Below the pieces are notes generated by a model. The model worked only from the letters and a program-made list of their open reading frames with translations, did not search any database and was not told the origin of the DNA. Shown here in pieces: positions 1-62,731 of a DNA stretch of 64,000 bases (position 1 is the stretch's first letter; every line of letters begins with the position of its first letter). The stretch comes from Psammoneis japonica (lineage: Eukaryota): assembly GCA_008632985.1 (NCBI GenBank), contig QPGO01000093.1:186001-250000 (forward strand). The letters run 5' to 3'. The position numbers and the translations under genes are program-made.

Positions 1-2380
1 CAGCTCATGACATTGTCACAATTTGCACTTTCACTCTCATGACTGCCTTGGGATTCATGGGTTTGTGGCTCAACGTTAAATGCGGAGATCTCTTGGTGTC
101 AGTTCGGGGCTGGCGCTGGTGTTGGCTGTGCCACACAGCTGGGGGGCAGCTGCTGGTGGCAACATGGCTGTAGAAAGTGGCCTTTGGTCATGCAGCAGTT
201 AAGGGCATGGCTTGCAGGCCAAGTTTGCCAGTGCATGGGCAGTCATTTGCACAGCTCAAGCTTCAATCAATTTGTTGGTTTTCTTTTGTGCATTCACTGC
301 TGCTGGGGGGGGGGGCATTGTCAGAATTGAGCTCTCAGGTGTGTGCGCAGCTGGTGCATGCTGACATGTGTGATGTCTGTTCTGGGATGGATGCAGAAAA
401 GCAGACCAAGCAAGCAAGAGAATTCAAGAGTGTCTTTGAGAGCATTGTGGCCAAAGGGTGCTGTTGACTTGCACACCCCGATTGAGCCACACCTCTCTCA
501 TGTGGTTGTTTGGTGCCAATTGAAAGATGAGTTCCAGTGCTTTAGGGGGGAACTTGCTGTGAGGAACTGTGGTGACATTTTGCATTTTTCATGTCTCAGT
601 GTGCAAAGCTCATGTGCGCATTTGCACAACTTTGGATTCAATGTGTCTGTGGAGCACAAACACGCTTCACAGATTTCCAAAATTTTCAATGTGAACAAGA
701 GGGACAGCAGTGCCACAAAAGTGGTCTTCTTTTGTTTTGATGTCAATGACAAATGCGCTCATTGCCTGGTGCATGAGCTGCAGAGCTCTCATGCACAGAA
801 CTCTGTGATGGGGGGACAAATGTGTCCAAAACTTTCCCATCTGGAGCCACATCAAAAGAACATTCTCTGGTTGCATGTTGCCTCCCACCCCCCCCACACT
901 GGAGCTGAAGGAGTCATTGCTGCACCTGCTGATCCAGGCACAGCTAGAATGTGTGTGCTCACACTGGAAAAACTGCCAGTGTGGCACACACCTGCAATGA
1001 TGGGTGCTTCAACCAACCAGCTGACAAACCCAACACAGAGTGTCACATGACAAGCACACCATCACTTGGGGCACAAGAATGCCTGCTTGAAATCAAGGTG
1101 CTGGGCAAAGTTGTCATGGAGCCACTAAAATGACAAGCACAAAAAACTCACAGCCTGGATCTAAAACTGCCTCCAAAGAAGACAACAAGACAGCTGTTCA
1201 CTTTTTGGCTGCCCATGTTGAGACATTCATTTGAACAGTCAGCAGCTCTCCTCAGACAGCAAAGTTTCTGAGTCTCCTTGCTCTTTTGCTGTTCTTTTGG
1301 TGACAGCATTGTGCAAGAGCCCACCCAGATGGCGTTGTTGTGTGTGATGGGTTCATCCAGAGAGAATCAACTCAAGCACACCAAAGTTGTCTCCCCTTTC
1401 CCACATTGAAAATAGAGAGATGGAAAAGAGGCAAGGTGTGCCATGTTGCATGATGGCACAAACACTTTGAAAATGGAAAACTGGACAACAAGTTGGCACA
1501 AGAGCCTGGAGAGCCTGCGTGTGCTGAGCAGTGTGCATGCCACCACTGCTGTTCTTGTTGACAAGCAAGAAGGCACCCTCATCTGCCCATGAGAGGGCAA
1601 GCAGCAGATTGCAGAAATGGGAACCTGCAGTGCTGAACTTTCACAACACCGCATGCTTCCAACCTCAGCTGCATGCACAGTTGAAATTTGTGCAGTTGAA
1701 TGCAGAGTTGAAGAGGAGCTTGTGGGGAAAGGAAGGGAACAGCAGAGGGGGGCACAGAACAAGCAGCTGCAGCAGCAGGAGAGCAGAAAGGCTGCAATGT
1801 GCAGGGCATTTGGCACAGAAGAAGCAGGGGGGAGATGAGCCAGTGTGTGAAGAGAGGAGGAGGCAAAGTGAAGGGTGCACATGAAAAGATGGCAAACTGG
1901 GTTGTGGCCAAGTGTTTGAACAGCCCACCAAGAAGGAGAGGTGGGGTGGTGTGTGCTGCCAAAGTGCCAATCACTGGAAAGGCAGCTCCAGGTGAAATCA
2001 GCAAAAGGGAGAGAGGGGCAGATGGCGACATTGGGGCTTGAAGAAAGAACATTGTTCAGAGTTTTGCAGAGGTTAGAGGAGGAGGACCTGGGGGGCTTGG
2101 GCTGGGAGCAGGCAGAGGAGAGTGAAGAGCCAAAGAAAAATTGATGGCAGCCAAAAGAAGCTGGGACAATCAAAGCGATCAATGGCAAAGAGGGAAGAAG
2201 AAGGAAGATGCTGTCGTCATTGTTGAGCAAAGCAACAACAAGGGATCCATCAGCAGAAGATGCAGGAGGTCCAAGAAACTTCAGTCTCGTGCTCGGTTGG
2301 GTGCCTCTCATTCAGTTAAAACAGGAGAGCAGAGGGAGCAGGCAGACAAGGAGGAGGGCGAGCTAAAAGGAGCTTGGGGA
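1..2380. repeat. TpA/CpG-depleted, TpG/CpA-rich degenerate block (probable decayed repeat or mobile DNA, family not identified)
   Basis: 4 TA dinucleotides in the first 600 nt by hand count. ORFs are Cys/His-rich and lack Tyr. Composition returns to normal near 2390. Confidence 0.75.
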
Positions 2381-5222: not shown

Positions 5223-7933
5223 GGTTGATGAGGTGTCGTTCCTGGATCTTCTTTTGTGACAACAGCGCAACCACGCAAGCTGGAAAACGAGAAAATCTTT
5301 TCTTCGTTCTAAAATCGTGTACATAGAATTTGTACCAGCAACTCACGTGCACTTGGTTTATAAAGCATGCAATGATGAAGAACAGTATAAAAATTTCAAT
5401 CGCGAGTGAACGTACCGGTAGGGCCTACGTAGCCCTACGGTATCTTTGCTACCGTACAGCATGGTACTGCACGAGCATTCAATCGCGCGAAACAGTCAAT
5501 GACTCAGCCGACTGAACGATTGACATCTGCCTGTGGACATTCGGATAGAGGGCAAGACCGGAGAACCATCGGTGAAAACGAAACAAGTCTCGAGCACACC
5601 GTTAGAGCGCCAAGCACTCCAACTTTCGGCTGAAACCTGGAGCAAAAATGAAAATTGAAGAAAAGTTGTGGGATGGCCGCTCTTGTTGATGTGCTTTTTT
5701 GTTTCCCGAGGGACAGGCAAAAAGACTGCCTTTCTGTGCCAGCCAGTCAGTCAGCCAGCCAGTCAGTCAGACTGTTGCCATCAGGGAGCATTTTGTGCTG
5801 CAGCTCAGATGTGGCAGAGCTGGTGGTTTTCTTGCAGATGGCTTGCCACCAAAAAGGAAGAGATGGGGGTGTCCTCAAAGCACTTGAGATTGACAAAAGC
5901 CCTGCAGCATGCAAAAGAGCAAAAAGCACTTGTCAGAGCAGGCCATCTGGGAAACAAACACTGCCTTTGACAAGTCTTTCATCCATGCCAAGCTTCAGCT
6001 TTTTGTGCCTTTGTTGACCACGCAACCCTGGCAGTTTCTTTGAAAAGCACAGCAGTGGCAACACACACCATTTGAAAATGCCCCTTGGGATCTCTTCAGC
6101 AAAGCAGGTGCGTCATTTCTGAGCAACACGCATCTTGCCAAGTGAGCTGAACACTGGGAAGATGCTGGTGCAGCTTTTTTTTTTCATTTGTGGCTCTGCA
6201 CATTGTGGCATGGGCTCTCATCAAGATGAGCGCCACTCTCCAGAGCTCATGTTTTCAGCAAAATGCTTGGTGTTGCTGATGCACACTCCAGCTCCAGGTG
6301 GGAATTTTTTTGAACATTTGTCCTGCAGAATTCTGCACGTGAGCTCTGCAGTTTGCACACTGGGTGGCAAACACACACATGAATGCTGCAACTCTTCATG
6401 TGCTGAACATTTTGGAAAACTCACAAACACAACACACCGGAGAACACAGAAGCTGCGTGACAAGCGTCAGAAGCTGTTTTCTTGAGTGGGGGTGGCCCAA
6501 CAAAATGGTGCCATAAACTGGCACAAAACAAATGTCTAAAGTTGAGCCACTGGGTGAGAAAAGAAGAGGGTTGTTGACATTGTGAAAGTTTCCATGACAA
6601 ACACATTGCCAGAAAGTGGAGAAAAGCTCTTTCTTGTGGCACACACTGACCCAAGCAGCAAACTGCTTGCTTTTGTTGCGGCACACGCAAGTGTGAAACT
6701 CAGTCAGTTTTTGTTGAAGACAAGGCCCATCCTTGGAAGCAAGGTTCTTCTCCCAGAGTTTGTGCTGATTTTGGATCCTCTTCTTGGCACAACTGCCCTT
6801 TGCTGTGTTGGTTTGGGTTCTTTGCATCCTCTCCAAAAGAAAAAAAACAACCTTGCTCTTGTGCAATTTCATCTCAACCAGTTGTCTCCAGTGTGTGTTG
6901 CTGCGAAGTGGTGCATTGACCACCAGATTGCATGAGCTTCCGCCGCACCCCTGGCGGCACACACTGGAAGCAAGTGTGGGGGTTGGCCAGTGCTGGCATT
7001 GCTGGGCAAAGGTGTGACAGCATGTAAAATCAGGTTTGAGCAAAGCTGGAAGCTGGAGTTTGATCAAAAAATCATTTCCTGGCTGTGCAATTCTTTGTGT
7101 GAGAAACTCTGGTTTGAGTTTTTTTTTGCTCAAGCACTTGCACGACAACCCTCTTTTTCTCACCCAGTGGCTCAGCTGCAGCTGTGGGGGCATGTGCAAA
7201 TTTTGTGTGAAGGTGTCAAAAAGTGCAAGATGTCACAGTTCCTCCCCACTGCAAGCCCTCCCACCTGGGAGAGCTGGAGTTCATGTCTGCTTGACAAGAT
7301 GTCATGAGGCTCACAGCTGATTTGCAATTTGCAAACTTCCACAGAGAAGAGCTTGTGACTTGGTGTCTGGCTTTGCTGCCATGGCCAAAGACAAAGCAGC
7401 AGCTCGCCCTTGCATCTTTGTGGTGTTCAAAGCAAAGTTGTGCTCTTCCCCAGCATCAGATGGAAAGCAGTGTGCTGTTGCAAGCAAAAGAGCCAGTGCT
7501 CATCTTTGAGGTGTTCCAAAGGTGTGCTCACAACATGGTTCATGGGCAAGGCTGTCACAAAAAAATGTCCTGTGAGCCAATCAACAAGGTCAGCACCCCT
7601 TGCATGGCTTTGCACACAGCAGACAGAAGCTGGCAAACCTGGCAGACACCTTCTTGCTTGCAAGCTCTGCCTTGTTGTCCAAAATGGAGAAACAAAAAAA
7701 ATGCATCCACAGAAAGGCAGAAAAAAGCAGCTCTTCATGTTGCTGCTCCTTTTCTTCAGGTGAAATTGTAAAAACTAAAATGCCAGTTTGAAGACATGCC
7801 AAATGTGCAAAATGTGGCAAGTTGTGTGAATGTCATTTCCACAAAAAACTCTGGCAAGCTCTGGAACAGGCCAGGTGCCAATCAAGGGCGGATTGTTGTT
7901 TTGTGGTTGATTTTGTTTAGAGTTCGCAGACAT

Positions 7934-8389
7934 TTAACGCCGCATCCACGGATTCACCAGGCAACACTCGGGCATGGCAAAAAGTGTGCATTTGGTCAAA
8001 ATTGATTGTTGAGTGCAAATGGTGGTGTCTTTGGGGTCCCTTCAGTGAGCCGATCATGCACATTTCTTGTCTGACCATCACAGGTCGTCTTAATGGGGGA
8101 TGTCAAAACGTCGTGCTTCAATGTGTGAATTTTCAATTTCACACAACCTCAACGGCTGAGTGCATCATGCAACGATTGATCCTTGAGACGTGTCAAAGCA
8201 CGACGTTTTGACACCCCCCACAAGACGGACCTGTGGTGGTCAAATGAGAAATGTGCGTGTTCGGCTCACTGAAGGGACCCCAAAGACACCACCATTTGCA
8301 CTCAATGATCGATTTTGACCAAATGCACACTTTTTGCCATGCCCAACTTTTGCCAATTTTGCCTGGTGAATGCGTGGATGCGGTGTTAA
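7934..8389. mobile_element. MITE-like element with ~185 bp inverted arms bounded by TTAA (possibly piggyBac-derived)
   Basis: 7934-8118 is the reverse complement of ~8196-8389 (e.g. GGTGGTGTCTTTGGGGTCCCTTCAGTGAGCCG / CGGCTCACTGAAGGGACCCCAAAGACACCACC). TTAA lies at both outer ends. Confidence 0.6.
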
Positions 8390-10119
8390 AAATGACCCGG
8401 ATTTGTTGCACTGACAATGCGCGCATTTGCCAACAAAAAATTCAGTGACAGGCCCAACTTTGTCTGTTTGCAAGACAACACAGAATGCACGTGAGATGAT
8501 TGCGACCATGCACAATGTGCAGCTTGTTGACTGCAAATTTGTCCACAGCAGGTCAAACGCCAATTGCCAGCATTTTCTGGAAAGTTGTGGCTCATCCACC
8601 ATGAACAGTCTAATTTTGGGGGAAAATGGCGGTTTGTTGCATGTGACAACTGCGGCAAACATGACAATTGGCATTTGAAGGTTGACATCTGCAGCTCACT
8701 TAGAGGTCCAACAGCCCTGATGGGGGCTGGGCACACTCACATGTGTCTGGGGGGTGCTCAGAGGCATCGCAAAATGACGCGGGCGAAGTGCGGGAAAATT
8801 CGAAAATCATGATCTGTTTTGAAAAAATGGTGCAAAACAATGACCCAGCCTTAAAAAAAGTCTGGTTCCAGATCCAGGTGATGCACACATGCGCTGTTTG
8901 TCAACTGGCTCATGTTGCTTTTTTGCAAACTCCTCTTCCTTCAACTTTGGTGCTTTGAAAAATTGCGGGGAGTGAGCAGCACACACAAGAAATTCCAACT
9001 TTGGCATTTTCAAAAATTGCAAGGTGAGCACACACAAGAAATTCTTTTTTGCCACTTGGGAAAAACCAGCCAAAGCCACACTTGTGGTTTTGAATTGGCG
9101 CGCAGCAAGGCCAAATTTGTCCAGCCATTTTGCGGTGGGCCATGGCTGCAGCTGTGCTTTTCAACAGGTGACTTCCCCCAAACAAAGCTGTGCACAGATT
9201 GTTGGCTGGCTGGTCTGGGAGTGCATTGCACCATCTGTCCTCCATCCACACATGACTCCACATTCCAGCCAGCAGCACCATTTGCTCCTCATTGCACACT
9301 TGGCTGGAAGTCTTCAGCTCAAACATCCATGGACAACAGCTGAGAGAGTGGCAACCAAGAGGTTGGCAGCAAACCAGCCCTCTTCATCCAGGAAAAGAAA
9401 AGGCAGGAGTGGAGTGATCAGACAGAAGGCAGTCTTGACTGCTGAGTCTGAGTGAGTTGGGAGAGTGACCTTGTCTGGGTTGTCTGCACAGCCCACATTC
9501 TTGGTGCTGCTGTTCCAGGTTGAGGTGTCAATTTCCATCATTTTGAAGTTCTCTGGGTCTGTGAACCCACTCCAACCAGGATGGCATGGAACATTTCCAC
9601 CTGGCTGTTGTTGGAGCCTCTTGTGCTGCTGCCAACCACGTGGTCATGGAGCAAGAAAGCTGCATTTCCATGGTCACTTGGCATGCTGTGCTGAGGAATG
9701 CCATGTCTTGTTCCAAATGCATTGACTGGATTGAGCCCACAATGGACTTGTGCAGGATGGCTTGCAGGGAACCCAGCTTGTGACCCACGCTGCTGCTCAA
9801 TGTGGGCAGTTTGCAAAGAAGTTGTTCCAGCCACATCTGGAAAATGTTGTGGCTCTTGTTCAGAGTTCATCTGTGCTGAACAAGAGCCCCCTGGGTTCTC
9901 AACAAGTGCTTGTTGACATTGAACAAAGCAAACCTGACAATTGTTTTTGCACTCCAAGTGGGAAAACACACTCAATCTGCAGGTCTCATTGTTTGTTTGA
10001 TCTTGATGAGATTGCAGCCACAGCGGTTCTGACATGATTTGGTTTGTGTCCACAATTGAACAAACATGCAAAGCAGGAAACAACAGCTGACAAAACTTGC
10101 AACTTGCACTTGTTTGTTC

Positions 10120-13100
10120 TTGACAAGGGTGCAACTGCTTTCTGACATTGCTCATTTCTGACAATGACAACGTTCACTCATCTCATTGAGATGCACATTG
10201 GCTGTGTGCTGCTTGCAATGTGATTTGTGCTGGCTGTGTTTTGTCATTTCTGCAGTGAACATGTTTTTGCCTCCTGTTTCCTGCTCTTCCCTCCTTGACT
10301 TTGTCCTGTCTCCTGCCAGTGCTCCCACGCCACAGTCACTCTCTGTCTTCACATGATGGTGTGATGTGCATTGTCCATTGCAACTGCTCTTTTGCTCACC
10401 ACAACCATGTCATTTGTTCCATGTCATGACCTTGTCTCTTTTGCTCATCATGCCAGTTTGCCAAAGCTTTGCTTGCAAAGAAGAGAAAAGAGCTTGCAAC
10501 AGATCCGAGCATTGTGTGTGTTTTGTTTTGAATGGGCTTGGCTTGGTGCAAATGACATTTCTGCTCACCTTTGTGTGCAACCTTGTCTCTTTCATTTTTC
10601 ATGCTGGCTTGCCAAAGCATTGCATGCAAAAAAGAGAAAAGAGTGCACAACAGATGAGAGCATTGTGTGTGTTTTGTTTTGAGTGTGCCTTGCGCAAATG
10701 CTGCTTCTGCTCACCTTTGAGTGGCCCCTGCAGGGCTGTTTTCCCTTCTGGCTTCCCTTGCATGTCAACATGTCCAAGTGGAAATGGGCAAAAGCACCAG
10801 TTGTTTGCATTGTTGCCCAAGCTCCATGCACTTGCCAACTCAGTTGCTGCCTCTCTCTCACCTTGCACCCCACATTGTCCTTCTCCTCCCCTGCCTCTGC
10901 TCTTCTGTTTCCTTCCCTCACTGCTGTCATTGTCGCGATGATGGATGAGCCCTGTGATTTGTGTTTTGTGTCTTGTTGGGCAATGATGATTTGTGTTTTT
11001 GCACCAATGTTGAGCCTGTCTGCCTGGTGATTCCTGTCAGCATTGCTTTTTAAGTGACAATTTTGTTTTGAAATTCCACACTCACACTTGGTTTTGCTGG
11101 TTTGAATGATTTAAAATGCTTGAATGAACCATCCAGTCATTGAGGTTTTGCGCATGTCTCTGCAGTTGGTCAATTTCTCAATTTTTGTTGTGTCAATGTG
11201 TTCTTGTTAAGATGGAAATTTTCACAGTCTTGCTGCCACACACCATCCAACTTCAATGCTCCGGGACTTCAATCTCCACAATCTGCTTGATGCTCTCACA
11301 ACCACATTTTCTTTTTGGTGTGTTGCAACAATGCCACCAAAAAAACATGTGAGCCATCACCATGGAGGTGGTGGTGGCCATCCTTGTGCTGCCAACTGCT
11401 CCAATTCTGACAGCGCTCTTGGCCATGGCGATGCAGGTGGGCTGGCAGGAGATCTCAAGCTGAGCCTCAGCCACAAGAGCACAGCAGGAGGAGCCCTCAG
11501 AGAAACCAAGGCTCTGCCAATGGAGCTGCTGCAGCAATGGCTGACAACACAGCAACCACTGCCACTGCTGCTGCCTCCATCAACAATGAAGCCAACTGCC
11601 TGCCACACCAGTGCAGCTGATGACCCCGCTCTCTGGGGCCATTCCACCTGAAGATCTCGAATTTCTCATGCATTGGCACAAAATTCCCGTGGTTGTTGTT
11701 GCATCCCCTGGCACCCAACAGAGTCTCCCACAGCCATCTCAAGACAACTGAGCACTTGTGCTGTCACACAGATGGCTCCATGGTCTCTGCACAGGTGTGT
11801 TGACTGGGCCAAAGATCCCCCAGCCAAGTCAAAAAGAAAAGGGGCCACATTGACACCACAAGACAAGGCCTTTGCTCCCCAACCAAGGTTGTTGTTGGCT
11901 CTCCTGGGACACAATGGAATCACCAAAGGCCAGAAACAGATGTCTGGGCACTTGTGCTGTCACACAGAAAGCTCCCTTGCCCATGCAGGTGGGGTGGCTG
12001 GGCCACCAAAGCAAGCCAATCACATCAGAAAGAAAAGGGGCTGCACTGACCTGAGACAAGGCTTTTCCATTGTTGTTGCCTCCTCCCAGACACAACAGAG
12101 TCTCTTGTGCCTGTCCCCAGAAAACTTGGTGCTTGCACTGTCACATGGATGGCTCCCTTGTCTTTCTTGCAGATTGAGCCACCAAAAGCCATCCCAAGAC
12201 AATGGAGTGCTTGCACTGTCACACAGATGGTTCCCTTGTCTTTGCAGGTTGGCTGGTGTCTCCACACTTTGTTCAGCTGGGCACCTTCTTGTGTGGAGGA
12301 ATCCTGCAAGGAGCTGCTGCTTCTGCCCAAGACAGGGCTTGCAGCTTCCAAAATCAAGAGTGCAAACACACCACAGTTGGGCCAAGAACCCACTCAACAA
12401 ATGCAGGCTGAGTGCATTCTTTGGGGTCCATGTCATGATGCAGGTGGCAGCAACTCAAACCAATGTGCACTGCTGGCAATGATGATGATCTGGCTTGGCA
12501 TTTGGCAAATGTTTGCTGGAACATGGGTGCACTGCCACCACATGCTCCACTTCAGTTTCTTGAGTGGCCTTGGCCTGTGCGCCATTTGTGCTTGTTGTTC
12601 TTGCTTCCCAACCATCTGTTGGACAGCACAAGTTCTCAGCTGTCTTGGGATGGGCACAAGAGACTCCATTGGGTCCCTGGGGAGGCAAGAACAACAAGCG
12701 TGAATGGCGCACAGGCCAAGGCCACTCAAGAAACTGAAGTGGAGCATGTGGTGGCAGTGCACCCATGTTCCAGCAAACATTTGCCAAATGCCAAGCCAGA
12801 TCATCATCATTGCCAGCAGTGCACATTGGTTTGAGTTGCTGCCACCTGCATCATGACATGGACCCCAAAGAATGCACTCAGCCTGCATTTGTTGAGTGGG
12901 TTCTTGGCCCAACTGTGGTGTCTTTGCACTCTTGACTTTGGAAGCTGCAAGCCTTGTCTTGGACAGCAGCAGCAGCCCCTTGCAGGATTCCTCCACACAA
13001 GAAGATGCCCAGCTGAACAAAGTGTGGAGGCACTGACCAACCTGCAAAGACAAGGGAACCATCTGTGTGACAGCGCAAGCACTCCATTGTCTTGGGATGG

Positions 13101-14985
13101 CTTTTGGTGGCTCAACCTGCAAGAAAGACAAGGGAGCCATCTGTGTGACAGCACAAGTGCCAAGTTTTCTGGGGACAGGCACAAGAGACTCTGTTGGGTT
13201 CGGGAGGAGGCAACAACAATGGAGAAGCCTTGTCTTGGGTTGATGCAGCCCTTTTTCTTTCTGATGTCATGATTGGCTTGCTTTGGCGGCCCAGCCACCC
13301 CACAAGCAGAGGCAAGGGAGCTTTCTGTGTGTGACAGCACAAGTGCCCAGGCATCTTTTGCTGGCCTTGAGTGACTCCGTTGTGTCCCAGAAGAGCCAAC
13401 AACAACCTTGGTTGGGGAGCAAAGGCCTTGTCAATGTGGCCCCTTTTCTTTTTGACTTGACTGGGGGCTTCTTTGGCCCAGCCAACACACATGTGCAGAG
13501 ACCATGGAGCCATCTGTGTGACAGCGCAAGCAACCAGTTGTCTTGGGATGGCTGTGGGAGACTCCATTGGGTGCCAGGGCATGCAACAACAATCACAGGA
13601 ATTTTGTGCCAGCACATGAGAAATTCATGATTTTTGGCTCCAATGGCTGGAGAGTGGTGCGGGCCCACATTGGCATGGTGAGCAGCAGCTTTGTCATTGT
13701 GGAGGCAGCAGCAGTGCCAACAGTTGCCGGGTTGGGACCATTAGCCAGTGCTGCAGCAGCTGTGGCAGCACAGCCTTGGTTTCTCTGAGAGGGCTCCTCC
13801 TGCTGTGCTCTTGTGGCTGAGATTGAGCTTGAGATTTTCCAGCTCCACCTGCACAGCAAGACTGTGAAAATTTGCATCTTAACAAGAACACATCAACATG
13901 ACAAAAAATGAGAAATTGACCGACTGCCGACACACAAGCAAAAGCTCAATGATTGGATGATCCATCAAGTCATTTCAAATCATTCAAACCTTCAAAACCA
14001 AATGTGAGCATGGAATTTTAAAACAAAATTGTCACTTAAAAAGCGATGCTGAGAGGAATCACCAGGCAGACAGGCTCAACATTGCTGCAAAAACGCAAAC
14101 CATCATTTCCTCACAAGGCACAAAACACAAAACACAAGGCTCGTCAAACATCATGACAATGACATCAGCAGTGAGGGAAGGCAACAACAGAAGAAGAGCA
14201 CCAGGGGGAGGAGGACAGTGCAGAACACAAGGCAAGAGAGAGACATGAACTGAGTTGGTGAGTGCACAGAGCTTGGGCAACAATGGAAGTGACTTGTGCT
14301 TTTGCCAATCTTTCCACTCAGACATGATGTTGACAACATGCCAGGGGAGCCAGAAGGGAAGGCAGCCCTGCAGGGGCCACTCAAAGGTGAACAGAAACAG
14401 CGTTTGCACCAAGCACATTCAAAACAATGCAAACGCAATGCTCTCATCTGCTGCATGCTCTTTTCTCTTCTTTGCAGGCGATGCTTTGGCAAACTGGTGT
14501 GAAGCACAAAAGAGACATGGTCACATGCAAAGGTGAGCACAAGTGCTGTTTTTGCCAAGCCAAGCCCATTCAAAATAAAGCACACGCAATGCTCTGAACT
14601 GTTGTGAGCTCTTTTCTCTTCTTTGCGGGCAAAGCTTTGGCAATCTGGCATGACAAGCAAAAGAGACAAGGTCATGACATGGAACAAATGACAGGATTGT
14701 GCATGGTGACCGAGAGCGGCTACAAGGGGCAGCACAATGAGCGAAACATCATGCCGCCACAGCGGCGTGGGAGAGCTGGCAGGAGACAGGACAAAGCCAA
14801 GGAGGGAGGAGCAGGAAACTGGAAGCAAAAACATGTTCACTGCAGAAATGACAAAACACAGCCAGCAAAATCACATTGCAAGCAACACACAACCAGCGCA
14901 CAAGCATCTTAATGAGATGAATGAATTTCGTCATTGTCAGAAATGAGTGATGTCACAAAGCAGCCACAGCTGCACCCTTGTTGAG
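10120..14985. repeat. ~4.9 kb imperfect palindrome (foldback-like), arms ~2.3-2.5 kb, spacer ~12610-12680
   Basis: Mirror ORFs on opposite strands (12463-12834+ and 12455-12826- share their N- and C-termini, 11673+ vs 12807-, 10683+ vs 14059-). 10120-10275 matches the reverse complement of ~14820-14985. Confidence 0.92.
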
Positions 14986-15397
14986 AAGTTTCATTGACAA
15001 CCATTTCCAACTTGGAAGGTCACATTAATTGTGAACGTGAGCTGAATCATTTCAAAATGATTGTGGCCACAATCTTGCCAAGATTGAACACAGAATTAGA
15101 GCCATTTTCATCAAGCATCAAATCCCGCTTGGAGTGTTGAAATGACTGTTAAAATTGCTTCGCACATGATTGACAAGCAGCTGTTAAGAACACAGGATTC
15201 TCAACAAGCAAGTGCAAGTTCTGGGCTGAACAAGAGCCACAACGTTTTCCAGATGTGCCACACAGATGGTTCCCTCATCTTTGCAGGTTGGTTGGCTGGG
15301 CACCAAACCCAGTCATGTCAGAAAGACATGGTGCTGCATTGACACAAGACAAGGCCTTTGCTTCCCAGCCATTGTTGTTGTTGTTGTTGTTGTGCAT

Positions 15398-15839
15398 CAT
15401 GCATGCAGACAAAAGGTTGTTTTTGTCACGCCCTTTGTGACATTTAAAGGCTGCAACACGTCGCCATGACACATTGGCTCTTGTTGGCAGCTGTGTGCTG
15501 CACTCCTCCCCATGCATCACGCGTCCATGCGGCTCTTTGCTGATGTGTGCTGACACTGCACGGTTTTGGCGGAACAGTGTGGGTGCGCACGAAGGAACAC
15601 ACAGAACTGCACAGAGTTTTGCGTGCTCGACAGTGATCAACGTTGCTGCAGACAACTCCCACTCAGGGTTTCAAACCCCTGGCCTCCTGCCTGATGGTTG
15701 CGATGAACCACTCCGCTGTGAATTCACAACGCAGCATGCATGCAGACAAAAGGTTGTTTTTGTCATGCCTTTTGTGACATTTAAAGGCTGCAACACGTCG
15801 CCGTGATGCGTTGGCTCTCATCAGCAGCTGTGTGCTGCA
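15398..15839 (+). repeat. Two ~105 bp direct repeats (15398-15501, 15735-15839)
   Basis: GCATGCAGACAAAAGGTTGTTTTTGTCA...GACATTTAAAGGCTGCAACACGTCGCC...GCAGCTGTGTGCTGCA occurs twice. Confidence 0.85.
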
Positions 15840-15977
15840 GTTGTTGTCAAACACCCAATGAGGACAGAGTGAATTGCAACAGAGGCACGCCACTGTTGTT
15901 GTTGTTGGATGTTGGATCAAAGGATGAGTTGCACAGTGTCCAGCAGGAAAAAGGACAAATGCAGCAGAGAAACAGAG

Positions 15978-16185
15978 CAAAACAAAGGCAGAGAGCTGAC
16001 AAATGGAAGAAAAGGGAACAAATGAAGCTGTTCTTGAGAAGTTTGAAATGAGGACAAAATGAGCCACACAGGCAACTCGTCAAACAAAGGCAGAGATCTG
16101 ACAAATGGAGGGAAAGGGAACAAATGATGAAGCTGTTCTTAACAGGTTTAAAATGAGGACAAAATGAGCTGTGCAGGTGACCTGC
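15978..16185 (+). repeat. Tandem ~105 bp repeat, with a partial third copy at ~17393-17440
   Basis: AAACAAAGGCAGAGA-CTGACAAATGGA...GAAGCTGTTCTT...AAATGAGGACAAAATGAGC is repeated. Confidence 0.85.
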
Positions 16186-18601
16186 CATGATGCTTTTGGG
16201 CCACATCCACCTGACCACAGCTGTGGTTTTTGACAAAAATGCTCGTGACCCATGAAATCAATTTTTCTTCTTTCCAAACAAACACAGGCATGCTGCACAG
16301 CGCGAATTGACGCTGGGGTCAGTTGTGATGGTGTGGCAACATTTGGCACCAAGAAGTGAGAGAAACACATTGAGAGCATGCCAAAGCCTTGCTGTGATCA
16401 CAAGGTGCAGGTCCCAAAGAAAGGTGTCTTTGCTCAATGCCTTTGATCATCATCTGCATCCCACATGACATCAAATGCTTTGAAGGTCAAAAGTGAAGTG
16501 CGCTGTGCAGGTGCCCATGACTTGGACAATGCACTCGACAAAGATGGCATGGAAAGGCGCAAGCTGTTTCTTTGGCAGCGCTTTCCTTGTTAAAATAAAA
16601 ACAAGCATGGCAGCCCTTGCTTGTCATGATCATTTGCAACAATCAAATTGACTCAATGTTCATGTTGTCAAATCATCCAAAAAATTTGATCAATGGCTCT
16701 CAAACGCCTCCCTCCTTCGTGACCAAATGAGGAGATCCTGGGCAGTTGTCAGGTGTCAAAAATCCACACAAGTTCCTGAGGAGCCATGAGCAGTTGGACC
16801 TTGGCTCCTGTGAATCTGCGAGCTCCAACCAAATTGATTGGCAGCACAGCTCAAATTGTTCACTTTGTCTGCAAAGAGGTGTTTTCAAGCAGTCGACGCT
16901 TCTAAAACTGGGGCTGAGCTGCAGAAAGTGCTGCCAGCAACAGGCAAATGACAACAGCTGGCTGGAGCCCTTCTGTCAGACACCCATTTTTGTCATTTTG
17001 CATGCATGGAATGATGTGCACTTTGTCAACAATGTGGGTTGAACACCCCACAACAGTCCAGGAAGCACCCGCCACAGAGAAGGGTGCTGAGTGTGAGCAA
17101 CGGCAAGAGTCAACAAGCACAGTCAGCGCCACTTTTAACAACAAAAGTTGATTTGATCCAGGGCTTGGTGAGTGCACAGGCAGTTCTCTCTGCTGGGCTC
17201 CAAGCACTGGAAATCATTGCTGTGGTGATGAGAGCAGCTTTGTCAAAAAGCAATTTGACAGAGTGGCGGCACAAGCCAGCGCTTTCAACAGCTGGCTGTG
17301 ACTGGGAGCTGCACACCACGACTGCAAGGAGATGCAACATGCCATGACAGATTGAATTGGCAAACTCTGGCATGCAGAGAAAACACTCGTGTGAGCCACA
17401 CAGGCAACTCAAACAAAGGCAGAGATCTGACAAATGAAAAAAAAAGCAAGCGAAGCTGGCTCAAAATGTTGGCAAAACAAGCCACACAGGCAACTTAAAA
17501 TGAGCAAAAAAGATTTGATCATTTGTGACTTGAAAACCATCGAGAAACAAAATCAATGTCCATGTAAATTGAAGATCTGTGGAGACAATCAGCGCAAATG
17601 TGCAAACCCCAATTGTTGACAAGCGACACTCTGGTCAAGCACGGAAACATGTCACGTTGCAGACACATCATTGTGGCCAGTGGTGGTGCAGCAGACAGGC
17701 TGCTGTGTTTTAAAAACTAAAACAACTCTTGAATTGCAACACATGACGGGGATCGACACAGCGTCATCAACAACGTCCAACGTTGCGTTGTTGAGAAATC
17801 AGTGTTGACTTTGGCGCAACCGCACCTGAAAGTAGTACATGCATGCTGCACGTAGACAGTAAGATAAGAAAACACACATCCGTTGTTCGTCCATCTGTCC
17901 TATTTTCGCGCGCAGGACAATAAATGTGTGAAATGACTGTCCAACGAGTCGTTCGTGTGTCGTATTGTCTGAAATGTGTCATTTTCATTAACACTTTTTA
18001 AAAACATTTAACAAGAATTTATTTATGAGAAATGACTGCAAAACGAGAAACTTTTGTGTCCTAGCTTTTCAGACGAGAGAAGATTGCAATACGACCGACG
18101 ATGATGGATTCCTACCAATCACACCGCACCTTTGTGCGATGCTTAGTCCCGCCATGCAAACAATTAACAATGATAACCCCTCGATTTGATCTCTACCGTT
18201 TTCTGCAATGGATAAATGATCGAAGAATCATCCTGTCAAGAACCTACAAAATGAAAAGCACGAGCGAGAGACAACAACTACTACTACAAGACCAATTATT
18301 GGGAACGGTAAGCTGAAGTTCTTCATTGGATCTTTATGATGAAATACTGTCATGGTAGTGCCCAGAGCAGTGTATTGGATATGGATACTGAATGGCGACG
18401 GACGCTGTCGAGCTAATGCATCCTCTTGTACTATCCCAACAGATTCCTCGTTCGTCTCACTTATTTCGCTCAATTTTGCACAGACTGATTTCAAGAACAA
18501 GTAAAACACCAGCATCCTGACTTTGGGCTGACGACAAGCACAGCAATAATAACAAGAAAAACTGACTGGCGACAATACGAGGCACCAAGAGTACAACAAG
18601 G

Positions 18602-44200: not shown

Positions 44201-45890
44201 CTAAAGAAGAAACATTCTGTCCTTCACAAAACGTCCAAGGATGCGTCCGATGTGCTGGATGCTAGTCGAGCAACAGGTCAATGAGCCAGAGCGGTGTCGT
44301 GTTGCCGGCGACTGCAATGTGCAATGGGAGGTGACTGCTCTTATCGATGCACTGGACTGCATCTGGGCAAACGTTCTTCTCCCACTTGCCCACTTGTCCT
44401 TGGATGCTCCTTCACTCAAAGTTTTCACAGCAGTTGTCCAAAACAGGATGTGGAGAGGAGTCATCCCATTGCCAACCTGAGCTTTCAGGGATGCACACAC
44501 TGTTCCATTGCAAAGTAACTCTCCACTGCCAAAATGTGGAACGCGTGACCATCTTGCCAATGCAAGGGGTCACCATGCTCAGCAGTGAGATGCAGGAGCA
44601 AGCTTCTTTCCATGCCCTGGAATTTCTGGGCATTTGGAGAGAAGAGAAAATGCTGTTTCATTTTTGGCACCATTTTTCAAAAGTGCCAGGTGCAGTGGCA
44701 AGCACTGCTGGCAGTCAGTGACTTGCAGTGAACCTTTAAATTCACCCACAAACAGATCAACCACAGGCTGATGTGGAGAGCCCATGTCTGCAACCAGGTG
44801 CAACGGAAGAGAACCACTTTTCTTGTTGGGCACAATGAGGCCAAGTGGGTGATCCTTCATGAGCTCTTGCATCATTTTGATCCATGTCTGATGCATCATC
44901 ACAAGGCGATGGCCATTTTGCTCCAACCATTCAAGCACTGTTGTGCCCATGTGGATTGGCAGATCCCCGAACTTTTGTTTGGCATGGGATTCCCTCAGGT
45001 GGCATTGCAGAACTCAACCAAACACACCCACATCACAGCAGCCAGTTCGGGCCAGAATGTGTGCAAGCAACAAAGAGCTGTTGTGTGCATCATGAGCATC
45101 CATGGGAGCTGCAAAGGCTTTTTGGTCTTTGGCGACACCCCCACAAGAATCTGCATCAGCTTGTGCATGGGTGGTTTGCTGCCACAGCAGGCACAATTCA
45201 ATGGCTCCACTGGTTGGAACAATCTGCCCCATCTGGACAGGAGCAGAGCAACAACTCCATGGCATTCTCATGGTGGAACATGTGGGCAGCACAATGAGTT
45301 GGCAAGTTTTCTTAAAAAGCAGCATTTTCTTGGCTGCTTGAGGCAGGATGTGCGTCTGACAGGAAACCAATCTTGGCAAAATTGGTCATTGACACCCAAC
45401 AAGCAAGGTGCAGGAGACATTCGTCAAGGGCATTGTGGACTTGCAAAGCCTCTGTGCAAATGCCCATGAGCCACTCAAGCACGGGCAATGAGACTGCATT
45501 GTTGGATGCCACCAGATGGAGTGGAAGTGATCCCTTGGACACCAAGATGAGGTTGCGGCCATCTTTGACTGTTGATGTGGATCACAGGTCTTTGTCAGCA
45601 CATGCACCACTGCTGCTTGCAGCAGCAGAGGATACAAAGAGGTGTCCTGCCATCTTTGGCAATGGTCAAGTCTCAGCCATGATGGATTTCTCCCTGCCAG
45701 TGCCTTGACTCATTGAATGTCATTGGCCAAAAACACCTCCACCAGTGGTTTGATCTTGGGATCGGCCAGCTGTGTGTGGTGGGCACCTTGCTGATTCATT
45801 CACATTCTTTGCTTGCTTCCTCTGCATCCTGTTTGACACTGGCAACAGTTGGTGCAATGATGATGATGGGCAGTCTGGTGCAAGCCATGG
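44201..45890 (-). pseudogene. Degenerate ankyrin-like (LPLH-repeat) gene inside a TpA-depleted island
   Basis: Fragments in several frames: GSLPLHLVA, QCLPLHLAL, GMTPLHIL, SHLPLHIAV. Positions expected to read YP appear as CP/HP (LLSKCPE, MKDHP). Stops and frameshifts are present. Confidence 0.75.
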
Positions 45891-46194
45891 TTCATTGTTG
45901 GCATTGGTGGATCTTTGCTGATGGGACTTGACGACGACACACCGGATCACTTTTCTAGCACCGGCAGGACTCGCACTGAACTCTTGTCCCTACAGTGCTG
46001 CTTACGTTGGGGACGCGGGCCGACGCGACTACGATCAAGTGGCTTCAAAATGGTTCAATCACCCCGTGAAGTGTAGTTGCTATTGAAAACAAAGTTTAGA
46101 GACTAGACAGACACACTAACTCCAGCAGAAAGCAGATTTTCCTTACTATGTAACAGGACAGCACTATACCACCACAACCGCGCTCTTGGTAACT

Positions 46195-51502: not shown

Positions 51503-54389
51503 GCTCGCTGGTGTAAGCGTTGTGTTACCAAGAAATCAAATTCCGTTACAGTATTCTTTATTCGCGGAAGTGTGCGTTCCGATGCGGCGGTGATGGTGAT
51601 GGATGCTTTTGGCATTTTGACTCCGCTCCCAAGACTGAAATTTCATCCAACACGACTGAAATTACGCAATCAGTCTTATTCACGACTCGATTCGCTCATT
51701 GGCCACTTTTTTCTCAACAGGCAAAGCCCAAGAACTTTGTGGGTGTCAAATTTTTGTCTCAGCTCCATGTCACACAGACAACGAGACACAGCCGTCCAGC
51801 GAAGCGTCCAATTTTCAATTTCGCGCCACAAATTGAAACCTGACATCATCGATTTTTTTTGCTGCACTGCGGAACCACGTGCTGACCGCAGGAAAGACGA
51901 AAGACGTGCCTGGGTTCGCAGCACCAATTGCTTCCGCCAATTCCACCACCCAGGATGAGTTGAACTTCCTGCTTCTGCCCAGTCATGATCAGCTCCACAC
52001 TCCAGGCAGAGAGTCATCACAATCTTCAATCTGACCTTTTTTCTGCTAAAAATGGCAGAGGCAGAAGTTTTCACAAATGTGCCAGATTGACAACACACGG
52101 CCATGCTCACTTTGGGCAATGAAAAAGAGCAGGAAACATCGCTTCATCACCTTTGTGCTTGCAGATGTTTGCCAGACAAACTTGAATCAGCAATCTCTTG
52201 GTCGTCCACACCAACAAAGCCAGCTCACATCATTTCACTGTCTTGTCACAAGAGACTTTGCATTCCCGACACCAAGGCTGCTTTTCCACTCCAAAGTCTG
52301 CAGCCATGCATGCACCAAATGAAAGAGCAGCACAGAGAGAGCAGCTGCAAGGTCTGGCAGATGAGCTGGCTGCAACTTGAAGAAAGGTTTGTCCTTCTTG
52401 CCAATTTGCAACAAGCAGGCTCAACTGTCCACTTTTGACAAATGAGAGCAAATTGACATGCCCTGACTTGCCTTCCAGCCTCCAGCACTGACCTGCTCTT
52501 TGCACAAACCAAACCCGGCCATCATCTGGGTGTGGCCATCCAGACAATGTGGCAGGCATCATGACAAAACAATTGTGCCACACACACTGCTTCTTTGAAA
52601 TGAGGACAATGGCACTCTGCTTCTTTTCACCGCTGCAGAGAACACTTGACATCTGGTTGTTGAGTGGCTCTGCATGGAGCCTTTTTAGATGCCCAGTGTG
52701 GATGTGCCACCATGGCAGTGCAACAAAAAGACATCCTCATGTTCACACAACACAACAAAATTGGCAAAGCAGGAGACAACAATGGGCAAAACCAGAGGTT
52801 GATCTTGTCAATTGTCGCTTTGTTTGTTGGCTGGAGTGTGCCAACAAGTTGATTTGTTTGCTCTTGAATTGGTGTGCATTTTGTGATTTTGGTTTTCAAT
52901 GATGTTTGCTTTCTCTGCCCTGGCAACATTTTGCATTTGCAGTCAGTCTCACATCTTGGCATTCTTGGCTGTGCTGATGTTGCACCTTGCTTCACAATCT
53001 TTCATGTTTCCAGAAGAGTCATTTTTTGTGACAGCTTCTCATTTTGAGGCATGGCAGCAGTCACTGGCAGAAGCCAGTGGAGAAGTTTTGTCAGCTTGGC
53101 AATGTGGTTTTTCAAGTGTGGCTCAATTTTGTTGCTGCAGCTCAGCTGTGCAGCATTGCAGCACTGTGTTTTGCTCTTCCTTGGCTGTTTTTGTTGGCTT
53201 GTCCAAGTTGGAAGAAACAAAAAATCTGCAAAAGCATCAACTCAATTTTTGCTGCAAGCACTGAGCACTGTCTTCTCCCATGTTGCACTCTCTTTTCTGA
53301 TCATTTGCCATTCCTGTGGATTGTTTTTGCTGATGTGTGCAGAGTCATGGGGTTTGTTGGTGCCTTCCTGCAATGTCAACATTGCTCATGTGCCACTTGG
53401 GTGCATCATGTGTTTTCATGTTGTTTTGTGTGGCAGTCATGACACGCCATTGTTGCCATGGAGCCAAGCCAGTTGGCCTGGCAATCTCAATGCCTGCATC
53501 ATTTTGCAAGTGGTCATTTTCTGTGGGCCATTTGTCATGCTCATTTTTGAAGTTTCTCACCAAGCAGTTTGAGTCAACCCAAATGAACCAGTTTGTTGGT
53601 CTTCATTGGCAATGCATTTTTTGTGAGCTCTGAGCTCTCATTTGCTTGCCAGCTGGATGCCAGCATTGTTTCAATCAGATGCAGCACATCTGTTTGCAAA
53701 AAAGGTTGGTGTTTCAGTTTTTGTGACCTTGGCCAGCTCTTGTCAAGAAAAAAATTTTCACTTTTGTGCAGTTGTGTCCAGCTGGTTTGTGCATGTGTCT
53801 GTGGGGCTTCTGATCCACACATGATGCACACAACAACCTTTGCCTTTGTTGCCATTGTGCCGCAGTCATGTTTGAAACTTGCAAGCAGGAGGTCAGAAAA
53901 TGTCACAGACTTTGTTGTGCACAGCAGGTGGTCATGGATGGGGAGCTGGTCAAGCAAGAGGAGGTTGGCTGGGCACCACTGCCAGAGCAGCAGCCCCCAG
54001 AGACATTTGGGCACTGCATCTGCAGCACCTCCTTCTGCCGGTGTTCCTCCTCTCTGACAAGTGGTTGCCTTTGCCAGCATGGTTTTGTGCTGCCTTCCAT
54101 GTCACTTTGATGTCCAGGACAGTGCAGACTTGAGTTTCCCAGCTCAAGAGCAAACAAGCAGCCCAGCAGCAGAGCCCCATGATGGCAACACCTGAGAAAC
54201 CAACCCAACGAGCAACAGCAGGCTGAGGGCACTGATTGTCTCTGGCAGATCCCAAACAACACTTTGAGAGCTGTGTCTGAGCAGCACAAGAGTGCCAGCA
54301 TGGCGCAGCTGTGCACCCTGTCATGTCCTTCTAGCCAGAAGCAGCACACTTCAAACTCCCAAGTCCAGAATTAAAGGACCCTGCAGCAG

Positions 54390-54900
54390 TGCCAGCCAAC
54401 CTGAGAACAGCAAGCTGAGGAGTTTTTGGTTCTCTGGTGGATCTCAGGTGACACTGCAACAACCATGGTTGAGCAGTGCAAGGCCTGTTTGTGTGGTTGT
54501 GGCCCCCGCATCACCTTGTCCCCACACTGGCAGAGCTGACCTCCAAACTCAACAGCAGAGGCCACATGGTGGTGCCAGCCAACCCAACAGCCACAAGCTG
54601 AGGACACTGGTGGCAGTGCCTGGCAAACCTGCAAGGTTGATCTTCTTGTGGCGTTGTGACCCCATGTCACCTTGTTCCCAACAGCAACAAAAGCAAGCTT
54701 CCAAACTCCACAGTGAAAGGACTCCTGTGATGGATGACAGCACCAATGAACTTGACAAAAGCAAGCTGAGGACACTGGTGGTGTCTGGGAAACCCCAGGT
54801 GAGACCTTTGAAAACTGTGGCCAAGCATTGCAAGGTTGATCTTGTGGCATTGTGGCCCCTTGTCACCTTGTCCCCAACAGCAGCAGACTTGAATTTTCAA
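54390..54900 (+). repeat. Three diverged ~170-185 bp tandem units
   Basis: CAAGCTGAGGA at ~54411, 54594 and 54762. TCACCTTGT(C/T)CC at ~54511, 54667 and 54863. Confidence 0.7.
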
Positions 54901-57236: not shown

Positions 57237-57480
57237 TGCTTTCCAGCATCTGGAACTGCTTTGGAGGCTGCCTCTGATCATCTGCATCACTTTTGCAGTG
57301 ACTGATGTTGCCCCCCTCTCTGGAGTGCATTTGTTGCACAAGCAGAAAGTGTGGCTTGCTGTTTGGTGCTTTCCAGCATCTGGAAATGCCTCAGAGGCTG
57401 CCTCTGTTCATCCGCATCACTTTTGCAGCAACTGACATTGCCCCCCTCTCTGGAGTGCATTTGTCGCACAAACAGGAGTG
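57237..57480 (+). repeat. Tandem duplication, ~130 bp period
   Basis: TGCTTTCCAGCATCTGGAA...CATCACTTTTGCAG...TTGCCCCCCTCTCTGGAGTGCATTTGT occurs twice. Confidence 0.9.
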
Positions 57481-59849: not shown

Positions 59850-60400
59850 ATGGTTGCTGTTTGCTTGTTGCCAGAAGGAAACGTGCCAATGCCATTGAAC
59901 AGTGACTTGCCGATGAGCAGCCAACCTGTGAAACTCATGCAAGAACAAAGTGACACTTGCATTTTTTTGTCCCTGGCCAGTGTTCTTGATCATGCTGGCA
60001 ACCTGGAAATGAGGGGCTGTGTTGCTTCTCACATCCAAACATCTGCCAACAGCACTGACTCTGACAACAAGCACATGTTGTTTGCAAAGAACATGTCGAA
60101 TGGTCGTTTGGAGGGAAAATTCCCGCCTGTGAACTCAAACATGAGGTTTTGTGGCAATGTCGATCGAACAATTTCCTTGGAAGTGGGTGGTGAATTTGAT
60201 GTGACGACCCTTGATGATGACTTCATGACTTTGTGCTGTCTTGTGAATGACCACTGCATTGCCTGGCACTGTGATTGGATCTTTGATTCCAACCACCATT
60301 TTGCATTGCCAGCAAAGGACATCAAGGGCTTGAATTGGTGTCTTGGAAACAAGGAACATGAGGTGAAGTGCATGGCAAAAAGCGTCTGCAACAAGTGTTC
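59850..60400 (+). pseudogene. Decayed coding remnant with a possible papain-like Cys/His/Asp motif set
   Basis: Q...TCIFLSLASVL...NDHCIAW..DWIFDSN..FALP...LNWCLG. It follows acidic low-complexity remnants at ~58850-59130. Confidence 0.4.
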
Positions 60401-62083: not shown

Positions 62084-62731
62084 GATGCTTTCAAAATTTT
62101 GGGAATTGCATTTTTGGATCAAGCTCGCATTCACACGGATCGGTGTCATGGAGGAATTGAAGGCTCGTTTGGTGGAGAGGGAAACAGTCAAGTCGACACG
62201 AAAGCAAGCAATGGTGCTTTTCATGGACACTGTCAAGAAACGGCTGAAATTCGATCGTAAGACTGACAAAAAGGCAGCGCGCAATTACACAGGCAGTGGC
62301 CACAAGGAAGGAAATTAGCCCCACCTTGCACTCTGGAAAGTTGAGTCCGGAAATGAAAGCCCATGTTGACACCATCACAAAGGCGATGGGCAAGTCACAG
62401 AATTGTCCAGTCTTTCAGGGTGCAGTTCACCGGGGTGCCAACATTCGTGGTGCACATTTCAATTTGTTGCGTCCTGGAGCCACCTTCATGGACCCGGCTT
62501 TTGTGAGTGCCTCTCTGAAAGAGACTGTTGCTTGTGGTTTTCGTGGAAGCAAGAATGCACTCTTCAAGATTGAAAGTCCATCGGGTGTAAACGTGACAAA
62601 GAATCCAAAAACAAAGCTGAGTCAGAAATTCTTTTTCGACCTGGCACTGTGTTCATGATCACGGCGGTTGAGGAACATGACGATCCCGAGTGCGGAAAGT
62701 GGAAGTTTGTTTCAATGCGGGAGATTCATTG
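62084..62731 (+). pseudogene. ADP-ribosyltransferase (ARTC, R-S-E clade) pseudogene with two frameshifts
   Basis: AARNYTGSGHKE, then VHRG, FMDPAFVSASL and LFKIES..G.NV, then AESEILFRPGTVFMITAVE. A GGAA duplication lies at ~62306-62313 and a shift at ~62603. Confidence 0.82.

Follow-up and report, generated by a model that had tools for sequence, protein, structure and literature searches.

The closest described relative of the process considered here was found in the chlorarachniophyte alga Bigelowiella natans, for which Mettrop et al. (bioRxiv 10.64898/2026.01.13.699255, 14 Apr 2026) report TpA-restricted hypermutation of integrated viral regions. According to the main text of that preprint, 231 of the 302 nuclear single-nucleotide mutations in mutation-accumulation lines fell within two integrated viral regions; 230 of these 231 were A>G or T>C changes, each of them at a TpA, and the regional rate was ~6e–7 per site per generation, about 1000-fold the background. 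The same text counts 124 genomic clusters of windows that are TpA-poor and CpA+TpG-rich, proposes an ADAT2-like DNA adenine deaminase as the agent, and does not take up CpG, diatoms, stramenopiles or any sequence context beyond TpA. Here we analyze a 64,000-nt stretch of the diatom Psammoneis japonica (assembly GCA_008632985.1, contig QPGO01000093.1, positions 186,001 to 250,000, forward strand; hereafter the window, numbered from its first nucleotide), in which compact genes alternate with sharply bounded blocks of DNA nearly devoid of TpA. We would class the window as the second case of TpA-targeted regional hypermutation, far removed phylogenetically from the first and much further advanced. 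The sequence-only reading that first drew attention to the blocks had presented the process as undescribed, a claim overtaken by the April 2026 preprint; a region-targeted A:T-to-G:C process has so far been shown directly in one other alga only. Our literature search, whose coverage excluded most subscription journals, turned up no description of blocks depleted in TpA, either for diatoms or for stramenopiles, and the accessible part of a mutation-accumulation study of the diatom Phaeodactylum gives the usual GC>AT bias and does not mention TpA.

Profiling observed/expected (O/E) dinucleotide ratios in 500-nt bins along the window marked four bounded domains (1–2.3 kb, 5.6–17.7 kb, 44.3–46.0 kb and 51.7–64 kb), where TpA O/E per bin is 0.00–0.13 and TG and CA O/E are 1.5–2.6, against TpA O/E of 0.4–0.8 and CpG O/E of ~1.0 in the genes between them. 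For pooled statistics the cores of the blocks (1–2050, 5720–17500, 44380–45920 and 51950–61200; 24,623 nt in total) were compared with a reference set of 34,713 nt of neighbouring genes. O/E in the cores is 0.04 for TpA, 0.17 for CpG, 1.82 for TG and 1.84 for CA, whereas the pooled adjoining genes have 0.58 for TpA and 1.01 for CpG. As shares of all dinucleotides, TpA falls from 3.92% in genes to 0.26% in the cores and CpG from 5.84% to 1.01%, while TG+CA rises from 14.2% to 22.8%, and GC content is unchanged (0.484 in the cores vs. 0.480 in genes). The first 600 nt of the window contain four TpA, and a run of 2534 nt in block 2 (11208–13742) contains none, the longest TpA-less run in gene regions being 207 nt. 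The core blocks are also short of ApT (O/E 0.78 vs. 0.95 in genes) and rich in GpC (1.31 vs. 1.04).

With criteria fixed at TA O/E <0.2 and mean TG/CA O/E >1.45, 104 of 255 windows of 500 nt qualified, merging into six intervals. No window qualified in any of 20 shuffles of the 64-kb sequence, and none of 3432 did in 80 environmental eukaryotic loci (890 kb) retrieved with an alignment of the DHH protein encoded near the blocks; these loci, which their CpG O/E of 1.3–1.7 suggests are mostly green picoplankton, serve as a negative control only and are uninformative about diatoms. At the block borders composition switches within ~25–260 nt of the neighbouring genes. The earlier description of four TpA-poor, TG/CA-rich intervals with sharp borders and adjacent genes of ordinary TA content thus stands, down to its exact counts, with one amendment: the last interval, 51.8–64 kb, is indeed TpA-poor, but it is not uniform, since 61200–63090 and 63540–64000 retain CpG and 63095–63533 has normal composition (Table 1).

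Such a pattern could in principle be a sequencing or assembly artefact, with modified heterochromatin bases miscalled and TA and CG still present in the cell, and dense base modification is indeed to be expected in such regions. The sequence-only reading had named TA in accurate reads at these sites as its own refutation. We looked at a DNA data set (X1) that includes 73% of sampled words from 2500–12499 and whose contigs are built from exact 31-letter words at ~60-fold word depth. One X1 contig (depth 59.7) matches 1–2123 of block 1 without a difference, another crosses the border between gene and block over 2231–6168 with three differences, and others at depths of 50–61 tile 6175–9860 piecewise; TA did not appear, and the contigs reproduce the TA-free sequence. 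Contigs of this kind need accurate reads, which makes it very unlikely that a long-read basecaller miscalled modified bases. In polymerase-copied reads 5-methylcytosine, N6-methyladenine and 5-hydroxymethyluracil (5hmU) are not taken for another base, and both the doublets found between palindrome arms and the strict TTAA exception described below would be hard to obtain by miscalls. Even allowing that X1 may derive from the assembly's own sample, we give an artefact almost no credence. Over 1–20000 the window and X1 contigs differ by 430 transitions and 147 transversions, many of them from other repeat copies.

Decay of methylated CpG is the second simple explanation, and it accounts for half of the signal: the CpG O/E of 0.17 fits it, while the TpA O/E of 0.04 is left unexplained. 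The two depletions are also separable along the DNA. The TA-free domain is wider than the CpG-poor domain at four of six borders, by 100–260 nt, and the stretches that are TA-free yet keep CpG (51680–51935, 61200–63090 and 63540–64000; 2,608 nt pooled) have TpA O/E of 0.07, CpG O/E of 0.69 and 18.6% TG+CA. CpG decay therefore cannot explain the whole signal. Within block 2, the sub-region 8001–8500 likewise keeps CpG (O/E 0.70) at a TpA O/E of 0.06; it overlaps the smaller palindrome of that block and may be an unmethylated or younger patch.

Several lines of evidence indicate that the missing dinucleotides were converted where they stood. The total of pyrimidine–purine (YpR) steps is conserved (core blocks, 24.1%; TA-only stretches, 23.3%; genes, 24.0%), and when we simulated random conversion of every gene TA and CG to TG or CA, the result (TG 11.8%, CA 12.2%) came close to the shares observed (11.4% and 11.5%). 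The 4.9-kb imperfect palindrome of block 2 offers an internal comparison, its inner arms (12019–12609 and 12680–13270) being 94% complementary and its outer parts 84–86%. Of the 329 mismatched positions between the arms, 226 are transitions and 103 transversions. No dinucleotide mismatch is more frequent than CA opposite TG, whose 46 cases account for 92 of these positions, the result to be expected had each arm resolved an ancestral CG or TA on its own; CG opposite TA was not found. The commonest single-step mismatch class is GC vs. GT/AC (58).

Remnants of host gene families inside the blocks add a polarised view. A decayed fragment of the LVIVD-repeat family lies just inside a block border, 78–80% identical to its intact paralogue over the first 65–72 nt and 61% over 346 columns. 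In this 61%-identical alignment, six of the 13 aligned gene TpA are CA and one is TG in the fragment, and of 20 aligned gene CpG six are TG and three CA. A dead open reading frame (ORF) resembling an ADP-ribosyltransferase (ART-like) in the last domain has His (CAC) both at Tyr61 (Tyr in 15 of 20 homologues) and at the invariant Arg28 (19 of 19), each change being one TA>CA or CG>CA step; among its four Tyr-rich columns one gives a clean TAY>CAY step (Y, pyrimidine) and the other three are uninformative, so that this evidence is anecdotal. The catalytic E-x-E motif, without exception in 20 of 20 homologues, has here given way to Ser and Lys; further invariant residues have been replaced as well, and the arginine and serine motif residues are kept. 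Both remnants bear out the earlier statement that the blocks hold dead genes. Conserved YpR, CA/TG doublets and TA-free fragments of host genes together lead us to conclude that the composition was made in place by mutation.

The contrary view would have the blocks be foreign, viral or selected DNA that always avoided TpA and CpG, with no mutation in place. Viruses and cytoplasmic RNAs are described, in the sources available in part, as under-representing CpG and UpA, the targets in B. natans are integrated viruses by the preprint's main text, and only one of 94 block ORFs passes a Pfam cutoff (ART), none matching a transposon or viral family. Against this, host gene-family fragments within the domains are equally TA-free, the doublets between palindrome arms show conversion after duplication, and total YpR and GC are the same as in host genes. 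The signal moreover spans single-copy DNA, elements of ~1000 copies and a pseudogene, and ends at gene borders; an O/E of 0.04 in non-coding dead DNA far exceeds known selective avoidance; and the sparing of TTAA has no obvious selective rationale. We hold this explanation to be very improbable.

The way in which sites were hit can be read from the palindrome and from the TpA that survive. The 46 arm doublets are oriented 23:23 and fall into 23 runs, 23.9 being expected (runs test, P = 0.44); neighbouring sites were resolved independently, unlike the outcome of processive single-strand deamination. Of the 63 residual TpA, 29 lie in TTAA (46%, vs. 3.2% of gene TpA), 19 in CTAA/TTAG and one in R-TA-Y (R, purine), and the 29 residual TTAA compare with 31 expected had that tetramer not been depleted. 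A model of independent strands, in which each of the four possible neighbours has its own survival per strand (0.96, 0.25, 0.04 and 0.04), describes the residue well (χ2 = 3.5 for 10 classes and 4 parameters, vs. 430 for uniform survival). A baseline internal to the blocks agrees: TA makes up 0.072 of T-YR-A tetramers in the blocks and 0.070 in genes, so that TTAA is undepleted (ratio 1.04). For blocks 1–4 in turn, observed/expected counts are 2/2.6, 21/14.9, 2/2.0 and 4/11.7 for TTAA and 6/78, 14/447, 2/59 and 12/351 for other TpA, that is, survival of 0.34–1.4 of expectation for TTAA vs. 0.03–0.08 for the rest.

Residual counts cannot tell which neighbour decides; the products, sorted into 16 N-TG-N classes, can. 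Forward simulation starting from gene DNA, with the base 3′ of the mutated A as the deciding one, reproduced the observed change in these classes at r = +0.77 (root-mean-square error 0.19), no context gave r = 0.02, and the mirror rule, with the base 5′ of T deciding, was rejected at r = –0.55. The order of targets is thus T-A-Y > T-A-G >> T-A-A with TTAA fully spared, which is new, as are the near-complete removal of TpA, the reach of the TA-free domain beyond the CpG-poor one, and the independence of hits between sites and strands.

These observations also bear on a route through RNA, in which A-to-I hyperediting of double-stranded transcripts would be copied back to DNA, and on GC-biased repair or gene conversion among repeats. 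The 4.9-kb palindrome could yield a hairpin RNA, and ADAR-type enzymes favour U 5′ of the edited A; the preprint that gives this preference in its main text also describes ADARs as a metazoan family (bioRxiv 10.64898/2026.01.13.699255). Whole domains are affected here, including single-copy and non-palindromic DNA, strand-coordinated runs are absent, and the limits are fixed genomic borders, not the ends of elements. Biased gene conversion has no specificity for TpA, and GC, unchanged here, would be raised by it. We give both routes almost no credence.

The data show, or at the least strongly indicate, two transition processes acting in place on the blocks. We favour, at a probability of roughly three in four, the reading that the blocks are silent, partly repetitive, gene-dead DNA on which CpG decay and TpA hypermutation have gone near to completion in place. 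The first process would be ordinary CpG>TpG/CpA decay, as expected from cytosine methylation. The second would be a region-restricted A:T>G:C hypermutation turning TpA into TpG or CpA, with the signature seen in B. natans; such a second, region-targeted process had been proposed in the sequence-only reading, and it gains support from the mass balance of YpR steps, the arm doublets, the TA-free gene fragments and the TA-free overhang at borders, as well as from the mutations measured in B. natans lines (bioRxiv 10.64898/2026.01.13.699255, main text). It acts site by site and on each strand independently, halting within ~25–260 nt of the neighbouring genes. Read on the strand of the mutated A, the targets T-A-C and T-A-T are converted fast and T-A-G more slowly, and T-A-A is essentially immune, hence the survival of TTAA at normal frequency. 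What results is DNA that lacks TATA, Tyr codons and the stops TAA and TAG and has next to no AATAAA, so that its former content can be neither encoded nor expressed.

As to the agent, our proposal is an enzyme that would be brought to silenced chromatin, the likeliest candidate being a DNA-acting adenine deaminase of the ADAT2/TadA type, which would make inosine that is read as G; the 3′-neighbour rule would then be its specificity, and targeting would follow chromatin state rather than sequence repetition as such. The sequence-only reading had put forward adenine deamination or modification, or error-prone repair, as possible chemistries. A lesion on thymine would produce the same transitions: a TET/JBP-type dioxygenase acting on silenced DNA could oxidise the T of TpA to 5-hydroxymethyl- or 5-formyl-uracil, mispairing with G or misrepair then giving T>C. 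The window cannot tell which base was attacked, since T-A-B becomes V-T-A when read from the opposite strand. A preference for TpA is a feature of base J in kinetoplastid telomeres and of 5hmU in dinoflagellates, 5-formyluracil promotes T>C, and thymine, like 5-methylcytosine, is a 5-methylpyrimidine in a self-complementary YpR step, which fits the co-location with CpG decay. On the other hand, 5hmU:A pairs are only weakly mutagenic, our analysis gave no sign of such a modification or enzyme, and the main text of the B. natans preprint proposes adenine deamination and reports no thymine modification. We therefore rate oxidised thymine as unlikely and retain adenine deamination in silenced chromatin as the working proposal.

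A number of points weigh against the favoured reading and its proposed agent. The agreement of X1 excludes a basecalling artefact and, X1 being possibly the assembly's own sample, does not supply an independent strain. The comparison is confined to the window itself. An original composition of the blocks like that of the neighbouring, mostly coding, DNA is taken for granted in the mass balance, in the context model and in the simulation alike. Polarised evidence within the window is thin, amounting to 13 TpA sites in a 61%-identical alignment and two codons, and for the CA/TG doublets a TA ancestor cannot be told from a CG ancestor. The ApT deficit and GpC excess of the core blocks do not arise in simulated TA/CG conversion; they could reflect a weaker off-target A>G before pyrimidine or merely a different ancestral composition. 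Retention of TTAA could stem in part from re-creation of TpA by C>T at TCAA instead of immunity. No transposon or viral domain was detected in the 94 block ORFs, and block 1 stands at single-copy depth. ADAT2/3 is present in all eukaryotes, and in tRNA a pyrimidine usually occupies position 32, just 5′ of U33-A34; the blocks show no such preference.

The content of the blocks bears on repetition as a trigger. Summed read depth is ~60 for single-copy sequence and 145–1700 over most of 6–17.5 kb, so that much of block 2 belongs to multi-copy families; it peaks at ~62,000 in an element that, by this ratio, has on the order of 1000 genomic copies. This element has no Rfam or tRNA match, and a contig of an RNA-like run (X2) matches 15499–15723 within it with 12 differences. 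Block 1, in contrast, lies over 1–2123 within a contig at single-copy depth (59.7). The earlier assertion that the blocks hold repeats thus applies to much of 6–17.5 kb and not to 1–2123, and repetition as the trigger, the sense of the label 'reverse RIP' (after fungal repeat-induced point mutation, RIP), finds no backing in a block of single-copy depth or in blocks where transposon and viral domains went undetected.

In a Pfam scan of the 94 block ORFs of at least 110 aa, one, a piece of an ART domain, exceeded its family cutoff and two gave sub-threshold matches; families of transposons or viruses were not matched. Since TGA is the one stop left in TA-free DNA, long ORFs in the blocks are no evidence of genes; three of them give, on translation, the Cys/His/Ser/Leu-rich sequences usual for TG/CA-rich non-coding DNA. 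The 64-kb window yielded no RNA genes when scanned for Rfam families and tRNAs, and when 150 stop-to-stop ORFs of the gene regions (at least 80 aa each) were compared with the blocks by tblastn, the LVIVD fragment was the only match. The 4.9-kb palindrome could fold into a hairpin, as RNA or as DNA, and silencing might start from it. A (CAGT/CAGC)n-like microsatellite occupies 5730–5777, at the left border of block 2.

Table 1. Blocks, domains and elements of the window (window coordinates)
Feature	Coordinates	Strand	Remarks
TA-free block 1	1..2316		TpA- and CpG-poor core 1–2050; CpG back at ~2176–2288, TpA back at 2317
TA-free block 2	5604..17710		CpG-poor core ~5710–17540; TA-free overhang ~100 nt (left) and ~170 nt (right)
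Decayed LVIVD-repeat family fragment	5930..6275	+	Paralogous to 20457–20773 of the intact gene; just inside the border
Smaller palindrome in block 2	7960..8354		Arms 7960–8118 and 8196–8354
4.9-kb imperfect palindrome	10117..14987		Centre near 12642; internal tandem units, period ~151 nt
Very high-copy element	15342..16008		Depth ~62,000 vs. ~60; TA-free, CpG O/E 0.55
Block 3	44343..45955		TA-free, CpG-poor; between two genes
TA-free block 4	51678..61200		CpG depletion from ~51940 only; 260-nt TA-free, CpG-normal margin
TA-free, CpG-keeping domain	61200..63094		Includes the ART-like pseudogene
Dead ART-like ORF	62248..62655	+	Pfam ART E 8e–7; best homologue E 3e–12
Island of normal composition	63095..63533		36 TpA in ~440 nt
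TA-free, CpG-retaining domain, resumed	63534..64000		To the end of the window

The island of normal TpA and CpG near the end of the window carries 26-nt terminal inverted repeats (63098–63123 and 63470–63495), and no second copy of it occurs within the window. To judge from its sequence, this element of ~400 nt looks like an insertion resembling a miniature inverted-repeat transposable element that was not hypermutated, being either a recent arrival or exempt from the process; it could serve as a natural reporter of any hypermutation still going on.

Compact, intron-poor genes fill the space between the blocks. Their products are an alpha/beta hydrolase, an NmrA-like protein, an LVIVD-repeat protein, a cationic amino-acid permease, a bestrophin, a protein with three HA domains and a DHH/DHHA2 phosphoesterase. 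With Fragilaria crotonensis KAI2507976.1 the DHH protein shares 290 of 421 residues (69%), and with a Thalassionema transcriptome protein its identity is 59%, in keeping with a diatom host. A search with the HA-domain protein gave no close relative with an organism name, its only named match being an oomycete protein at E 2.8e–4. None of the proteins matched was identical to one of the window's, so that the organism is not well represented in the collection searched. A spliced X2 contig at 18096–19217 (+ strand), which marks that run as RNA-like, covers the 5′ end of the LVIVD-repeat gene with two short introns (18307–18482 and 18733–18814) and thereby places the start of this gene ~400 nt from the block border. 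X2 gives almost no cover on the blocks, and this missing cover is not evidence of silence.

If the favoured reading is right, TpA hypermutation would be no chlorarachniophyte curiosity but a genome defence found also in diatoms, major marine primary producers, and there near completion. More tentatively, and at odds we would put clearly below even, diatoms and perhaps the whole Stramenopiles–Alveolata–Rhizaria (SAR) assemblage may possess a chromatin-guided T-A-Y adenine deaminase beside CpG methylation as a DNA-editing defence. The self-complementary YpR steps of silenced DNA would then collapse to TG/CA, with permanent loss of TATA, poly-A signals, Tyr codons and two of the three stops, and the TTAA exception and the TA-free overhang would be read-outs of enzyme specificity and of the spread of targeting. 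Any candidate enzyme would have to satisfy the order T-A-Y > T-A-G >> T-A-A, strand-independent non-processive hits and a domain overhanging the CpG-poor one. Such a system would point to natural DNA A-to-G editors of possible biotechnological interest, and kilobase TA-free runs would be a very cheap genome-wide marker of anciently silenced DNA. For annotation, TA-free DNA is a hazard in that it yields long spurious ORFs, stopped by TGA only, and hides the origin of the sequence.

Among known systems, fungal RIP is alike in being regional, transition-only and dinucleotide-specific, in irreversibly inactivating non-genic or duplicated DNA and in leaving a diagnostic skew. It differs in making TpA from CpA, whereas here TpA is destroyed and CA/TG enriched, at a GC of 0.48 without AT enrichment; and its trigger is duplication; here many parts are multi-copy, and block 1 is at single-copy depth. 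Diatoms are not known to have a RID or DIM-2 pathway.

CpG decay of methylated transposable elements accounts for the CpG>TpG/CpA half of the signal and for its restriction to silent DNA, and CpG methylation in diatoms is cited in the accessible part of PMC6604790. It cannot remove TpA, and here 2.6 kb is TA-free with near-normal CpG.

ADAR and the TadA-derived adenine base editors share the A>G outcome and a preference for T or U 5′ of the target A, which for ADAR is given in the main text of the B. natans preprint. The natural site of TadA, U-A-C-G, resembles the T-A-Y optimum of the blocks, whereas ADAR prefers a 3′ G. ADAR is a metazoan enzyme acting on double-stranded RNA, whereas the blocks are without strand-coordinated clusters; natural TadA/ADAT act on tRNA, and DNA activity in a diatom is hypothetical.

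Nearest is B. natans. By the preprint's main text the two cases probably agree in the change itself (TpA>TpG/CpA only), for which the support here is indirect, and they agree in bounded regions beside normally mutating DNA, in the coupling of TpA loss to a gain of CpA+TpG, and in the affected DNA being mostly unannotatable or mobile-element-like, so that a reading as genome defence fits both. They differ in lineage, one being a chlorarachniophyte (Rhizaria) and the other a diatom (Stramenopiles), and in evidence, de novo mutations having been measured there whereas the process is deduced here from composition. In the diatom a strong CpG decay coincides with the TpA loss and viral or transposon genes are unrecognisable; the 3′-neighbour rule and the sparing of TTAA are seen here, where the preprint's main text gives TpA only; and the giant-virus region described there still has 3.3% TpA, compared with a near-saturated 0.26% in the blocks of P. 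japonica.

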